54,251 nucleotides of DNA from Nitrospirota bacterium (lineage in GTDB: Bacteria; Nitrospirota; Thermodesulfovibrionia; Thermodesulfovibrionales; Dissulfurispiraceae), in assembly GCA_040754455.1 (NCBI GenBank), contig JBFMCP010000019.1, positions 6,385 to 60,635 on the forward strand, read 5' to 3'. The notes under the pieces were generated by a model. That model saw only the letters and a list, made by a program, of their open reading frames with translations. It was not told where the DNA came from and searched no databases. Shown one piece after another: positions 1,286-36,827 of the stretch. The translations under genes were made by a program, and so were the position numbers. How positions within the stretch are numbered: position 1 is the stretch's first letter; each line of letters opens with the position of its first letter.

Positions 1286-1768
1286 ATGAAACGGTTTTTG
1301 CTGCTCCTCATAGCGGTCTCCCTCTTCGGATGTGCCCATGTAGTATCCCAGGGCATGAGGGACAGGGCGAGAGAGGTGCCGCCTCAGGCACTCTTCAGCA
1401 ATCCCGATGCCTATAAGGGGCAGACGGTTATTCTCGGGGGGACTATTATCGGAGCGAGCAATGCCAAAGAGGGGACCTATATTGAAGTCATCCAAAAACC
1501 GCTGGACTCTCGCGGCAGACCGCAGGATACGGATGCCTCCTTCGGCAGGTTCCTGATCTTTCATGAAGGGTATCTCGACACAACGATCTACTCAAGGGGA
1601 AGGGCGGTCACGGTGGCAGGAGAGATTATGGGAACGAGGGTCCGCTCTATCGATGATCTCCCGTATTCCTATCCCCTCATCAGGAGCAGAGAGCTCCATC
1701 TAGCCGAGACGGGCCGTCGTTCTGTTCCCGTCTCGATCGGCATCGGAATCGGGATATTTTCCAACTGA
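1286..1768 (+). CDS. Slp family outer-membrane lipoprotein
   Basis: Lipobox LFGC; motifs LGGTII, IEVIQKPLD, GRF, GRAVTVAGEI and YPLI are typical of Slp/YeaY. Confidence 0.85.
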   Translation: MKRFLLLLIAVSLFGCAHVVSQGMRDRAREVPPQALFSNPDAYKGQTVILGGTIIGASNAKEGTYIEVIQKPLDSRGRPQDTDASFGRFLIFHEGYLDTTIYSRGRAVTVAGEIMGTRVRSIDDLPYSYPLIRSRELHLAETGRRSVPVSIGIGIGIFSN

Positions 1769-2900: not shown

Positions 2901-3500
2901 ATGAAAGAATTGACGGCAAAACAGCAGAAGGTGCTGGAGTACCTTACCGGGTACACCAAAAAGCACGGATATCCGCCTACCATCAGGGAAATCGGAGAGC
3001 ATTTCGGGTTCCTCTGGGCTGCAGCGCGGGGGCATCTCCGTTCACTCGAAAAAAAAGGCGTCATAAAAATAAACCCTTCCACATCCCGGGGCATAGAGAT
3101 CGTAGGGTTGCGGCCGAAGGAAGGCGTCATGCTGCCCGTGGCAGGAACAATCCGCGCCGGACGGCCCATACTGGCGAATGAGAGCATCGATGCGCACATC
3201 CTTGTCGATAAATCACTGTTCCCGTCCGAGGAGTCGTTTTCGCTGCGGGTAATCGGCGACAGCATGGTCGATGCGGGCATACTCGACGGCGATTACGTTA
3301 TCGTGAAGCAGCAGCGCAGCATCGAGAATGGTGAAATAGGAGTCGCGCTCGTCGGCGACGAGGCGACGGTCAAGAGAATTTTCAGGGACAAGAAAAAGGT
3401 CACCCTGAAGCCTGAGAACAGAGATATGCACCCGGTCAGCTATGATCCGGAGGACGTGAGCATTATAGGAAAGGTCGTCGGAGTCATCAGGAAATTATAA
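2901..3500 (+). CDS. lexA: SOS transcriptional repressor LexA
   Basis: N-terminal wHTH (GYPPTIREIG), Ala-Gly cleavage site (IRAG), catalytic Ser (GDSM) and Lys (ATVK). Confidence 0.96.
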   Translation: MKELTAKQQKVLEYLTGYTKKHGYPPTIREIGEHFGFLWAAARGHLRSLEKKGVIKINPSTSRGIEIVGLRPKEGVMLPVAGTIRAGRPILANESIDAHILVDKSLFPSEESFSLRVIGDSMVDAGILDGDYVIVKQQRSIENGEIGVALVGDEATVKRIFRDKKKVTLKPENRDMHPVSYDPEDVSIIGKVVGVIRKL

Positions 3501-3739
3501 TGCATACCGGCGAACCCATAAGCGTCGTCGTCTCCTTCGGTATGCCCTACCGTATACGACCGGTCAGGTTCAAATGGGCGGGAAGGCTCTTCGACATTAA
3601 AGAGGTCACCTATATGTGGACGACGAAGGAAGGCCGGAAAGATGTCTATCATTTCTCTGTTACTGACGGCAGAACACTCTATGAACTGACCTTCGATACC
3701 GATTCGTTGCTCTGGAAGATCGAGAACCTCGAAGCATAA
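3500..3739 (+). CDS. Small beta-rich protein, ImuB C-terminal-like / DUF6504-like
   Basis: Start overlaps the lexA stop (TAATG). The pattern P..F.W.GR...I..V...W...Y.F.V..G...YEL..D...W resembles the ImuB C-terminal domain. Confidence 0.7.
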   Translation: MHTGEPISVVVSFGMPYRIRPVRFKWAGRLFDIKEVTYMWTTKEGRKDVYHFSVTDGRTLYELTFDTDSLLWKIENLEA

Positions 3740-3847
3740 ACGTAGTGGGGGGTCTGTGGGAGCACTACAGCCAGGACAGAGACACGCGCACGACCTCAGC
3801 TCCTATTTTCGCCTCGAGCAAAAGCAGGGTGAGTAGCCGCACCTCTT

Positions 3848-5068
3848 ATGACCAACACCATTCTCTGTATCGATATGGACGCCTTTTTCGCTTCGGTGGA
3901 GCAGCGGTCCAACCCGAAGCTCAGGGGCAAGCCGGTCGCCGTGGTCGGCCCGGGTGCGCGGACCGTGGTAGTCACCCGCTCTTATGAAGCGAGGAGCTAC
4001 GGCGTAAAGACGGGGATGACCGTTCACGAGGCGAAGAAGGCGTGTCCCCCTCTTGTTCTCGTGGTTGGCAACAATGAAAAGTATACCTACACCTGCAAGA
4101 TGCTCCAGGAGATATATTACCGTTATACTCCCGACGTTGAAATCTATTCGATCGACGAGGCGTTCCTCGATGTCACGACCACCCACCACCTCTTCGGTGG
4201 GCCCGAAGCGATCGGTGCTGCAATCAAAAGAGAGATTAAGAAGAAGTTCGGCATAAACTGCACGGTGGGCATCGCACCCAATGTCCTCATCGCAAAACTC
4301 GCCAGCGATATCGCGAAGCCCGACGGCCTCAAATGGATACCTCCCGAAGGAGTGGGCGCTGTTCTGGAGCACCTTCCGGTAAAAGAGTTGTGGGGCATCG
4401 GCACAGCGACTGCCGATAAACTCGCAGCGCTGGGTATAAAGACCTGCGGCGAGCTCGGCAGGGCGCCTGCGGGCCTCCTGCGGAATACCTTCGGCATTAT
4501 TGGCGAGACGCTCAAGGCAATGGGGAGGGGTATCTGCAACAGGCCCCTTGCCGTACAGGAGGCGGACCCGAAGTCGATCGGCCACAGTATGACGCTCGAT
4601 CGGGACATTGCGGACCGGAAGGAGATCGAGGCATATCTACTGCAGCTCAGCGAGATGGTAGGCAGGAGGGCGCGGAGGTATGGATACCGCGGCAGAAGAG
4701 TATCCCTTACCCTGCGCTATCCTGACTTCGAGACCTTCACCAAACAGACGACGCTCTCGTACCACACCAACGACACCCGTGAGATATATCGATCTGTGCT
4801 TGCTGTCCTCAACAGCGTCAGATTGAGGGACAGGATACGGCTGCTCGGTGTCTGCATCGCGCAGCTCACCGGAGGCGATAACCAACAGCTCTGCTTGATC
4901 GGGGATGAACGAAAACGCAGGGCGTTGCTGTATGCGATGGATGCGATCAACGACAAATACGGTGATTTCAAGATTGTCCATGCCTCGTATCTCAAGCAGC
5001 TCGATCCGCCCGATGTCATTTCGCCGGCATGGCGGCCTTCGGGCATTAGACGGGTGAATATCAAATAA
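3848..5068 (+). CDS. dinB: Y-family DNA polymerase (DinB/PolY-like) with C-terminal clamp-binding and RecA-NT-like motifs
   Basis: Catalytic motifs CIDMDAFFASVE, SYEAR and SIDEAFLD; KPDG; little-finger KSIG; tail QLCLI...ALLYAMDAINDKYG. Confidence 0.93.
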   Translation: MTNTILCIDMDAFFASVEQRSNPKLRGKPVAVVGPGARTVVVTRSYEARSYGVKTGMTVHEAKKACPPLVLVVGNNEKYTYTCKMLQEIYYRYTPDVEIYSIDEAFLDVTTTHHLFGGPEAIGAAIKREIKKKFGINCTVGIAPNVLIAKLASDIAKPDGLKWIPPEGVGAVLEHLPVKELWGIGTATADKLAALGIKTCGELGRAPAGLLRNTFGIIGETLKAMGRGICNRPLAVQEADPKSIGHSMTLDRDIADRKEIEAYLLQLSEMVGRRARRYGYRGRRVSLTLRYPDFETFTKQTTLSYHTNDTREIYRSVLAVLNSVRLRDRIRLLGVCIAQLTGGDNQQLCLIGDERKRRALLYAMDAINDKYGDFKIVHASYLKQLDPPDVISPAWRPSGIRRVNIK

Positions 5069-5689: not shown

Positions 5690-6238
5690 TTACGGCACTG
5701 AAGGACGGGGACGGTCTCTCCAGAAGGGATCACTCAGCGAAGCCGGACCCTGTAGCGCCTCGATCGGCGGAAGAGGGGCATAGGAGATCGGGGCTTTTCC
5801 CCACAAATGGATATCTTTTATTTCGAAGAGGGGATGGATGTATTCCACTTCTCCCCGTGTCCGGGGCTCCAGCTCTATAAATTCTCCGGCAATGGTTACT
5901 CTTTCTCCTTTGCTATACCTTTCCGGCGACAATATCCCTTGCTTCCGGGAAAGAAACGCAATGAACCGACCCGGCACCCGCTCCGAATCCTGAAGGCGGC
6001 CTTCGGCATCAACGGGAATATAGGCGGCCTCGATCATTGTGCCTTCATCGGTAATTTGCGTATCGATGATCCTCCCGCCGAGGATGAAGAGCCTTCCCCT
6101 GAACGCATCAGGGTTGTTGAAGACCTCGGGGAAGGAGAAGTCTGTTGACCCTCTGTCGAGATACTCCTGTTTGAGAACCGGCGCACACGAGGCAAGGACC
6201 AGGAGCATGAGCGCTATGAGCAGCATTCGAGGGTACAT
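5690..6238 (-). CDS. Slp family outer-membrane lipoprotein (second paralog)
   Basis: Lipobox LASC; LGGRII, GRF, GERVTIAGE and HLW motifs; similar to 1286-1768. Confidence 0.85.
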   Translation of the reverse strand: MYPRMLLIALMLLVLASCAPVLKQEYLDRGSTDFSFPEVFNNPDAFRGRLFILGGRIIDTQITDEGTMIEAAYIPVDAEGRLQDSERVPGRFIAFLSRKQGILSPERYSKGERVTIAGEFIELEPRTRGEVEYIHPLFEIKDIHLWGKAPISYAPLPPIEALQGPASLSDPFWRDRPRPSVP

Positions 6239-8651: not shown

Positions 8652-9053
8652 TCAGCAGGATTGCCTCTCGAGCGGCGGCATCTCTTCCTTCAGCTTCTGA
8701 ACGATAGGAATATCCGCCGGTGCGAAGTCATACCGGTCGATTTCATTGAGAGGGACCCATCTGATTTCATCATGTACGTTGAGAATGAACTCACCGCTTA
8801 TGTGCCGCACTATAAATGCCAGCAGCCGTATGCGGTCATACCTGCTCTCGGCAAAGAAGCGCTCAATGGTCGTTTGAATGGAAAGCTCTTCGAAGAGCTC
8901 TCTTTTGAGACACTCCTCCGGGTTCTCGTCGGGCTCCATTTTGCCGCCGGGGAACTCCCATTTGCCCTCGAGGTGCCTTCCCTTTTTCCTCTTCGCAATG
9001 AGAATGTTCCCATCCTTTTCGAGGATTGCGGCAGTGACGTTGATTGTCTCCAT
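8652..9053 (-). CDS. mutT: NUDIX hydrolase, MutT/NudG-like (d)NTP pyrophosphohydrolase
   Basis: WEFPGGK.E..E.PEECLKRELFEE Nudix box; start overlaps the upstream stop (TGATG). Confidence 0.85.
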   Translation of the reverse strand: METINVTAAILEKDGNILIAKRKKGRHLEGKWEFPGGKMEPDENPEECLKRELFEELSIQTTIERFFAESRYDRIRLLAFIVRHISGEFILNVHDEIRWVPLNEIDRYDFAPADIPIVQKLKEEMPPLERQSC

Positions 9054-9709
9054 CAATGGGTGTGCCGTTTGCTCTTTTCGAAGAACTGCATGTTGAGCTC
9101 GACCATCTGCTGCTGGATCTTCGCATAGTCGATGCCGAAATCCTGCCGGAGGGCTGCGGCGATATCCGCATAACGGCCGAAGACCCCGCCTACTGACGTG
9201 CTGCTGTAGTTGTGCACGAAGTCCCTGCAGAGCAGATGGGCCTCGTCGGTGGCTATGTGCGGCGTCTTCTTCAGGGCGCCGGCGATCTGTGCGCTTATCT
9301 CTTTCTTCAACCCTTCCGTCTCTTCTCCCTGGACACGTCGCTGAAAGAGATCTCCCACCGGGAGATGCTCGAGATCAAGACACCTGTTAAAGTCTCTGCA
9401 GTTGGGGCAATTGAACCGCAATTCGTCCTTCAGGGTTTCGATGAGGCAGGTCTCGAGAATGTTTCTGAAGGTTGTGTCCGGTATGGCGGAGGTCAGTTCC
9501 ATCAGCTTTGAAGCAAACTCCTCGCTGCTCTGTATGACCTCCGGTGGCGTTTCCTTCACCCGCTTCGAATTCTCCGCCCCGATGATGCTGCTCGCGAGGA
9601 TAACATAATAGTGCAGTTCTTCCGGGAATTCCGTGAGCTTTCTTTTGAGCTCCCTGTCGTTGAGCTCGTAAAGTATCGCCAGTTGTGAGAAGGTGATCCT
9701 GTCGGACAT
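9053..9709 (-). CDS. Hypothetical protein with CxxCx5C cluster
   Basis: 218-aa ORF with SD GGGAG, coupled to mutT; contains CPNCRDFNRC. Confidence 0.8.
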   Translation of the reverse strand: MSDRITFSQLAILYELNDRELKRKLTEFPEELHYYVILASSIIGAENSKRVKETPPEVIQSSEEFASKLMELTSAIPDTTFRNILETCLIETLKDELRFNCPNCRDFNRCLDLEHLPVGDLFQRRVQGEETEGLKKEISAQIAGALKKTPHIATDEAHLLCRDFVHNYSSTSVGGVFGRYADIAAALRQDFGIDYAKIQQQMVELNMQFFEKSKRHTH

Positions 9710-36332: not shown

Positions 36333-36827
36333 ATGAAGAAGAGCACTATTGCGTACCGTGTTTTTGGATATAACAGCCCTATCGGCCCTTTGTATTGTGT
36401 TTTCGAAAATACGGCGCTGATAGAGCTCGCGATCAACGAGAAGCCGGTCTTCATCTCTGAGCTTCCGGAGAGCGTTCCCACGCTCAATAATTCCTTCAAG
36501 GCAGAGCTCGATGCTTATTTTAAAGGTGAGCTGAAAGAGTTTGCCCAAAAAGTGAAGTTCGCCTCCGGCACCCCCTTTGAACAGCGCATCTGGCGCATGC
36601 TCCGGAAGGTCCCCTACGGTGAGACCAGATCATACAAATGGATTGCCGGACGGGTCGGAAGTCCGGGGGCGATGAGGGCGGTGGGGCAGGCACTAGGGAA
36701 AAATCCGCTGCCGATTATTGTCCCCTGCCATCGTATCATCGCCGCCGATGGTTCGATCGGCGGCTTTTCGAGCGGTGTTGAGGCCAAACGGTGGCTGCTG
36801 GAACATGAAAAAACAAATAAGGAGTGA
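36333..36827 (+). CDS. ogt: Methylated-DNA-protein-cysteine methyltransferase
   Basis: GTPF..W, PYGETRSY, RAVG, PCHR active site. Confidence 0.93.
   Translation: MKKSTIAYRVFGYNSPIGPLYCVFENTALIELAINEKPVFISELPESVPTLNNSFKAELDAYFKGELKEFAQKVKFASGTPFEQRIWRMLRKVPYGETRSYKWIAGRVGSPGAMRAVGQALGKNPLPIIVPCHRIIAADGSIGGFSSGVEAKRWLLEHEKTNKE

Follow-up and report, generated by a model that had tools for sequence, protein, structure and literature searches.

A lexA-imuB-C-polY cassette of a Nitrospirota bacterium, probably a LexA-autoregulated SOS operon of the GeoPolY-like type

The DNA analysed here, a stretch of 54,251 nucleotides from contig JBFMCP010000019.1 of a Nitrospirota bacterium (hereafter the window), harbors a compact cassette of three open reading frames (ORFs) which lie on one strand and fill positions 2901-5068. 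The first (2901-3500, + strand) encodes the SOS repressor LexA with an S24 autopeptidase domain (199 amino acids), the second (3500-3739, +) a stand-alone, all-beta ImuB-C-like protein of the GSU0042 type (79 amino acids), and the third (3848-5068, +) a Y-family DNA polymerase (PolY, 406 amino acids) that has the hallmarks of GeoPolY-like enzymes and appears catalytically intact. The lexA stop codon TAA (3498-3500) and the ATG of the small ORF (3500-3502) overlap by one base in the sequence TAATG, which makes joint translation of the first two genes very likely. A preliminary description of this DNA, made from the letters alone, had already pictured lexA as translationally coupled to a beta-rich protein of 79 residues, and both the overlap and a seven-strand structural model of the protein agree with that. 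It had also stated that umuD, imuA and dnaE2 are not adjacent, which holds for a larger region: a scan of 43 further ORFs of the window found no members of the UmuD, ImuA, DnaE2 or RecA families, and no S24 protein other than LexA was present among the window ORFs scanned. The LexA protein matches TIGR00498 with an E-value of 8.5e-65 (218 bits against a cut-off of 110.95), with the Pfam domains LexA_DNA_bind at residues 1-64 and Peptidase_S24 at residues 79-193. Its translation contains the elements VAG, GDSM and VKR, of which we take the first to be the cleavage site and the other two to provide the Ser/Lys dyad.

The small protein gave an AlphaFold2 model of seven beta-strands and no helix, with a mean predicted local distance difference test score (pLDDT) of 89.6 and a predicted template modelling score of 0.79. 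Its close homologues number 49, share 59-91% identity and nearly all consist of 79 amino acids; few of them are named, and among these is a hypothetical protein from a Thermodesulfovibrionales metagenome-assembled genome (MAG). With a profile built from 26 of these sequences, 799 representative clusters were matched at E<=0.001, of which 183 reached E<=1e-10, and the best 150 matches were mostly about 80 amino acids long. Part of the 799 matches are not relatives, as is clear from P0288, an Ig/PKD-repeat surface protein of 3552 amino acids that was matched nine times (E 4.7e-12) through its repeats and was rejected as a false positive. A protein atlas search returned only unnamed or DUF6504-bearing clusters of proteins of about 80 amino acids. 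Among plasmids there were two meaningful matches, on Geobacter and Pelobacter plasmids, next to two at chance level. Plasmid pSD of G. anodireducens carries lexA, a gene for an 84-amino-acid protein and a polymerase gene in the same order as in the window, and the small protein is 39% identical to that 84-residue protein over 75 residues (E 3e-17). With its length of about 80 residues, all-beta model, C-terminal Trp and homology to a Geobacter protein, the identification as a stand-alone ImuB-C-like protein given in the preliminary description is well founded.

Comparison of 92 diverse members of the small-protein family revealed W72 as the sole invariant column, with V9, F13, P21, F24, W26 and G45 nearly invariant. 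The conserved positions are mostly aromatic or hydrophobic and only one is basic (R29, 79% K/R). The isoelectric point is 6.7 for the window protein, with a family median of 6.96 and values above 8 in 35 of the 92 members. A near-neutral isoelectric point and conservation of aromatic and hydrophobic positions fit a protein-binding module better than a DNA binder. The profile and structure comparisons that the preliminary description had called for gave a divided answer. DUF6504 was matched at E<=0.01 by 58 of the 92 members (best 8.7e-9), the match of the window protein itself remaining under the cut-off. A YolD-type Pfam match did not appear at E<=1, and Foldseek gave no match of the model to the Protein Data Bank (PDB) at E<=0.001 (best E 0.37). 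The small-protein profile likewise found a single, non-significant match among PDB sequences, a Sac7d-derived affitin (E 0.097). DUF6504 is named in no paper found by our literature search.

A genome scan with the closer small-protein alignment (A1) gave 72 related loci. Most belong to Nitrospirota (Thermodesulfovibrionales, Nitrospira and Dissulfurispiraceae); the remaining ones come from Syntrophorhabdus, Syntrophus, Desulfatiglans, other 'Deltaproteobacteria', Desulfuromonas, Candidatus Scalindua and a Planctomycetia MAG. In 62 of the 72 loci a polY gene follows the small gene on the same strand, within 500 bp in 48 and after 0.66-4.6 kb in 14, and in 60 loci lexA precedes it, within 20 bp in 35. 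Fifty loci have both neighbours, and none of the 72 lacks both. Among the ten loci without a detected polY, four have no more than 1.1 kb of contig left and five have 1.6-3.5 kb of other genes. The 12 loci that lack an adjacent lexA all have the small gene directly upstream of polY, with gaps of 6-469 bp.

The promoter region of lexA contains a -35-like hexamer TTGACA (2864-2869, +), which is found at the same distance in most related loci, followed by the perfect palindrome GTATACAAATGTATAC (2885-2900). This inverted repeat, a putative LexA operator, overlaps a -10-like TATACA, and its last base precedes the lexA ATG. A strict promoter scan made no call at this site because TATACA does not have the final T that the scan requires. 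The palindrome GTATACAAATGTATAC gave a single match in the window, an exact one, even when three mismatches were allowed; by chance 0.17 matches would be expected, and 16 of 100 shuffled sequences had at least one match at <=3 mismatches. With the lexA start codon directly 3' of the operator and the -10-like box there is no room for a leader or a Shine-Dalgarno sequence, which suggests leaderless lexA transcripts across Thermodesulfovibrionia-type loci; the transcript in the window would accordingly be nearly leaderless.

In the related loci, the box TATACAWWTGTATA (<=2 mismatches) occurs between -150 and +20 of lexA in 47 of the 56 loci in which the 5' end of lexA is complete. It is missing from nine, the most divergent loci, many of which have other palindromes of the ACA-NN-TGT type. 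Across all 72 loci (694 kb) the box was matched 70 times, 55 of which are at lexA or small-gene promoters. It is also present upstream of the small gene in 8 of the 12 loci without adjacent lexA (L005, L010, L016, L043, L045, L050, L051 and L058, labelled Nitrospira, Nitrospirales, Nitrospiraceae, Nitrospirota or Thermodesulfovibrionales), so that in these the imuB-C-polY pair stays under the same predicted control. Palindromes of the GGTAACA..TGTTACC type are found in three of the four 'Deltaproteobacteria' loci (L064-L066, of which L065 is given as Thermodesulfobacteriota), unlike the window operator, which reads GTATACAWWTGTATAY, and the Scalindua loci L067 and L069 carry GTGAACA.GTGTTTAC. 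A literature search on a LexA box of Nitrospirae gave nothing relevant.

The small gene and polY are separated by a spacer of 108 nt (3740-3847, +). No Rfam match was found in it, its predicted fold is no better than that of shuffled sequences (z 0.71), and it holds no promoter-like site, no terminator on the + strand and no second operator, all of which fits a single transcript. In the relatives the length of this spacer varies from 0 to 4.6 kb, and the 14 loci with 0.66-4.6 kb between the two genes (L004, L020, L022, L025, L027, L029, L030, L032-L035, L037, L041 and L052) carry variable, unrelated cargo. Toxin-antitoxin pairs (MazF, ParE/Phd, PIN/CcdA) are found there, as well as DNA methylases with a TdeIII-type endonuclease (restriction-modification), an IS110 transposase, radical-SAM enzymes, acyltransferases, aminotransferases and a nitronate monooxygenase. 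The spacer looks like an insertion hotspot inside the SOS operon.

The polymerase is matched by the Pfam families IMS (E 2e-51), IMS_C (E 3.5e-30) and IMS_HHH. The best-scoring models are those of Pol IV; with the UmuC model the protein reaches 121 bits, far short of the cut-off of 431. Alignment with 53 full-length polymerases from the related loci gave, after cleaning, a set of 52 sequences, to which the invariant residues mentioned below refer. D9, F14, D103 and E104 are invariant. By homology to DinB and Dpo4 we take D9, D103 and E104 to be the catalytic acids and F14 the steric gate, so the polymerase should be active, in line with the intact catalytic residues reported in the preliminary description. 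AlphaFold2 modelled the core with confidence (mean pLDDT 83.9), and the protein is 55% identical to the polymerase of G. anodireducens pSD over 96% of its length. The pSD copy was matched in two pieces and has no annotated coding sequence in the PLSDB table. In addition, two related polymerase genes have an in-frame stop in their translations (listed are L061, 6243-7460; L072, 604-1833; and L073, 3001-4211). Such stop-containing or split copies could be pseudogenes, assembly errors or gaps in the PLSDB table.

Behind the little-finger domain, the polymerase has a clamp-type motif, a RecA N-terminal-like (RecA-NT-like) motif, a variable linker and a tail, in this order. The first of these elements is QLCLI (residues 347-351; 4886-4900, +), with Q347 and L350 invariant and a consensus of Q-x-x-L-F across the family; we assume from the general clamp-motif consensus that it is of the beta-clamp-binding type. 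The second element (residues 353-380; 4904-4987, +) consists of a helix plus a strand, with D365, N368 and G372 invariant, and in the model of the polymerase monomer a helix is predicted at residues 352-371. DUF4113 was the top Pfam family for all five C-terminal fragments tested and the sole family for four of them. In a comparison with E. coli RecA, hhalign placed a C-terminal profile of 54 sequences on residues 4-29 (35% identity, E 0.0052), and the pattern matches the column 'RecA-NT-like motif' in Table S2 of PMC6511836. The individual statistics are weak but mutually consistent and in line with the published motif, and as far as sequence can tell residues 353-380 are a RecA-NT-like motif. 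The combination of a clamp-like QLCLI and a RecA-NT-like segment, as given in the preliminary description, is thus retained, with invariant Q347 and L350 on one side and concordant DUF4113 and hhalign matches on the other.

The third element is the conserved C-terminal tail VISPAWRPSGIRRVNIK (residues 390-406; 5015-5065, +), a candidate docking motif. In the segment VISPAWRPSG at residues 390-399, I391, P393, W395 and G399 are invariant, whereas residues 383-397 and 399-406 have a pLDDT below 50 in the monomer model. Invariance combined with predicted disorder is what a motif that becomes ordered on binding a partner should show. The RecA-NT-like motif and the tail are kept in 53 of the 53 full-length polymerases aligned, and with polY present in 62 of the 72 loci the neighbourhood survey that had been proposed at the outset found the small gene to be co-conserved with RecA-NT-bearing polymerases. 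The same tail, (V/T)ISPAW(R/K)P.G.R.V.V., is present in all 16 published GeoPolY-like entries shown in PMC6511836.

The closest described counterpart of the cassette is the operon of Geobacter. The ImuB-C superfamily was defined on GSU0042 of Geobacter sulfurreducens, a protein of about 80 amino acids encoded in a lexA-imuB-C-polY operon, with a predicted all-beta structure and a conserved C-terminal Trp (PMC3765255). Stand-alone ImuB-C proteins are commonest beside Pol IV genes, often together with lexA, and also adjoin Ku/ligase, SplB-like photolyases and SRAP (PMC3765255). The 'GeoPolY-like' subgroup consists of active polymerases with a RecA-NT-like motif, of which 16 are listed with motif and tail as in the window; 11 of these have the arrangement 'LexA->ImuB-C->PolY', in one case interrupted by an inserted gene, and in G. 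sulfurreducens the operon is said to be DNA-damage induced and to form one transcript (PMC6511836, citing Jara 2003). The legend of Supplementary Fig. S10 of the same paper mentions that GeoPolY-like tails may bind ImuB-C, and the extreme C-terminal tail of UmuC is described there as binding its small subunit (PMC6511836). More recent AlphaFold models exceed their authors' confidence thresholds for all 11 module types and place ImuB-C, described as a beta-barrel with an apparently novel fold, at protein interfaces with ImuA and DnaE2 (PMC12926913), and the RecA-NT motif of ImuB mediates binding of ImuA' (PMC11791113).

Similar to the Geobacter-type operon (GSU0041-0043 type), the window has the same gene order, an all-beta protein of about 80 residues with a C-terminal Trp, a polymerase predicted to be active that carries the clamp and RecA-NT-like motifs as well as a ...VISPAWRP.G.R.V.V. 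tail, and a candidate operator over the lexA promoter. It differs in its operator sequence, in its 108-nt spacer before polY and in its nearest relatives, which are Nitrospirota (Thermodesulfovibrionales and Dissulfurispiraceae), a phylum absent from the 16 published entries. By gene order, motifs and tail, together with the 55% identity of the polymerases, the cassette would belong to the GeoPolY-like group, and judged by sequence it is a well-preserved example of the SOS operon already described in Geobacter. The preliminary description had instead proposed a distinct Pol V-like system. The claim that the system is distinct is not supported, as both the operon and the idea of ImuB-C binding to the polymerase tail are already found in the literature (PMC3765255, PMC6511836). 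The functional part of that description is reasonable and coincides with the hypothesis in print.

Resemblance to the other known mutasomes is partial. The ImuA-ImuB-DnaE2 system is also SOS regulated, has a Y-family protein as organising subunit and contains a RecA-NT-like motif followed by an ImuB-C module (PMC6511836, PMC12926913). Unlike ImuB, however, the window polymerase keeps D9, D103 and E104 and is not a dead scaffold, its ImuB-C is a separate polypeptide, and imuA and dnaE2 are absent from the window as scanned. Pol V (UmuDC) shares with the window a LexA-controlled Y-family polymerase with a RecA-NT-like (DUF4113-type) motif and a conserved C-terminal tail, whereas the window has no umuD among the scanned ORFs, its polymerase scores far below the UmuC cut-off, and its small subunit is neither an S24 nor an SH3-like protein and finds no fold match in the PDB at the threshold used. 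The Bacillus pairs YqjW/UvrX and YqjX/YolD likewise have a small accessory gene beside a RecA-NT-bearing polymerase, but in the window the small protein has no YolD-type Pfam match and its gene lies upstream, coupled to lexA. Membership of the three systems was rejected on the UmuC score for Pol V, the intact active site for ImuA-ImuB-DnaE2 and the absent YolD match for YqjW/UvrX-YolD.

We consider the cassette more likely than not to be an SOS operon autoregulated by LexA, of the type published as 'LexA->ImuB-C->PolY' (GeoPolY-like), for which the following mechanism can be proposed. LexA would bind GTATACAAATGTATAC across the -10 region and the start site and shut off its own operon. Upon DNA damage, RecA filaments would trigger self-cleavage of LexA, and all three genes would be expressed. 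The polymerase would reach stalled forks via the QLCLI clamp motif and take a RecA monomer through the helix-strand of its RecA-NT-like motif, as UmuC does in Pol V. The small beta-barrel protein, as a split counterpart of the C-terminal domain of ImuB, would serve as an accessory subunit and would most plausibly sit on the invariant tail that is disordered in the isolated polymerase. The proposal thus comprises three contacts: the polymerase tethered to the clamp, a RecA monomer held by the RecA-NT motif, and ImuB-C docked at the tail. Since the polymerase would perform translesion synthesis itself, no DnaE2 would be needed.

Several observations weigh against this reading. The 72 loci were sampled through the small protein, and they show its neighbours rather than the share of such polymerases that lack ImuB-C. 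In Table S4 of PMC6511836, ImuB-C is encoded away from the polymerase gene for 3 of the 16 listed GeoPolY-like polymerases and was not identified for 2. The homology of the small-protein family to the ImuB C-terminus is taken from the literature (PMC3765255), and a search with a diverse alignment (A2, E<=0.001) found no longer, fused ImuB-type relatives, which is weak evidence. The DUF6504 match of the window protein has an E-value of 8.2e-4 and reaches 20 bits, under the cut-off of 24.2 bits. Also for the polymerase tail the matches are modest: those of the C-terminal fragments to DUF4113 have E-values of 6e-4 to 0.06, all under the cut-off, and the RecA similarity, with an hhalign probability of only 6.9%, is short and statistically weak when taken alone. 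Finally, the association of the small gene with lexA is no looser than its association with polY.

This last point leads to the most serious rival, in which the small protein acts on the LexA side. Translated together with LexA, it would serve the SOS response by modulating LexA or RecA or by sensing damage, and the polymerase would be a plain Pol IV-type enzyme working with RecA and the clamp only. Its gene start overlaps or closely follows the lexA stop, the gap being at most 20 bp in 35 of the 60 loci with lexA, while cargo parts imuB-C from polY in 14 of the 62 loci that have both. One locus (L026) has lexA and imuB-C with no polY within 6 kb downstream. The occurrence of stand-alone ImuB-C beside repair genes other than polY, as listed above (PMC3765255), points in the same direction. 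Against this stand the 12 loci without adjacent lexA, every one of which keeps the small gene directly upstream of polY, and the architecture of ImuB, in which the homologous domain comes directly behind the RecA-NT motif, fused to a Y-family scaffold (PMC6511836, PMC12926913). Moreover, no partner other than the small protein has been proposed for the invariant polymerase tail. On balance we regard such a role as unlikely.

A role in DNA recognition was the first to be proposed for this family, namely that of a sensor of lesions or photoproducts that guides repair enzymes (PMC3765255). The association of ImuB-C with several unrelated repair systems agrees with such a function (PMC3765255), and the 2026 models, which place ImuB-C at interfaces with ImuA and DnaE2, disagree with it (PMC12926913). 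Features of the protein itself also stand against it: the window protein has a near-neutral isoelectric point, only a minority of the family exceeds a value of 8, and apart from R29 the conserved positions are mostly aromatic or hydrophobic. The affitin match mentioned above might be read in favour of a sensor, Sac7d being a DNA-binding protein; this match is a single, non-significant one at the sequence level, and no fold in the PDB was matched at E<=0.001. We consider a DNA sensor highly unlikely. That the 79-codon frame is merely a non-functional open frame between lexA and polY, as its small size and the lack of a Pfam match above threshold could suggest, can be dismissed in view of its 49 homologues, the 183 clusters at E<=1e-10, the confident all-beta model and the conserved position in 72 loci of several phyla.

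Returning to the GeoPolY-like operon with an ImuB-C subunit on the polymerase tail, a further step can be imagined by analogy. Stand-alone ImuB-C might be an adaptor that docks on the polymerase tail and also engages RecA or the PHP domain of the replicative Pol III alpha, thereby handing an active Y-family polymerase to the stalled replisome, with co-translation with LexA setting the dose as an SOS checkpoint. Docking on the PHP domain of Pol III alpha is suggested by analogy with the modelled contact between ImuB-C and the PHP domain of DnaE2. We offer this elaboration as a speculation that is distinctly unlikely to be correct in full.

What the cassette adds to the published picture is new but minor: a phylum that is absent from the published 16 entries, a candidate operator for the lineage, and a link of the small gene to lexA that is at least as tight as that to polY. 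The module is widespread and well conserved in Nitrospirota/Thermodesulfovibrionia, for which a candidate LexA box can now be proposed. Models of the function of the small protein must account for the imuB-C-lexA link as much as for the imuB-C-polY link. To our knowledge, the PolY-ImuB-C-RecA module is among several predicted bacterial mutasomes that nobody has reconstituted. The role of the small beta-barrel, once known, would explain both the evolution of ImuB and the control of damage-induced mutagenesis in many anaerobes.

The neighbourhood of the cassette consists of ordinary chromosomal genes according to the ORF scan of the window, and the host replicon is probably a chromosome of Nitrospirota/Thermodesulfovibrionia. 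Two further DNA-protection genes are present in the window, encoding an Ogt-type methylguanine methyltransferase and a NUDIX hydrolase (36333-36827 and 8652-9056); no copy of the operator was found near either of them at <=3 mismatches. A divergently oriented heptosyltransferase-like gene ends near position 2803, and genes for Slp-family outer-membrane lipoproteins flank the cassette region at 1286-1768 (+) and 5690-6238 (-).

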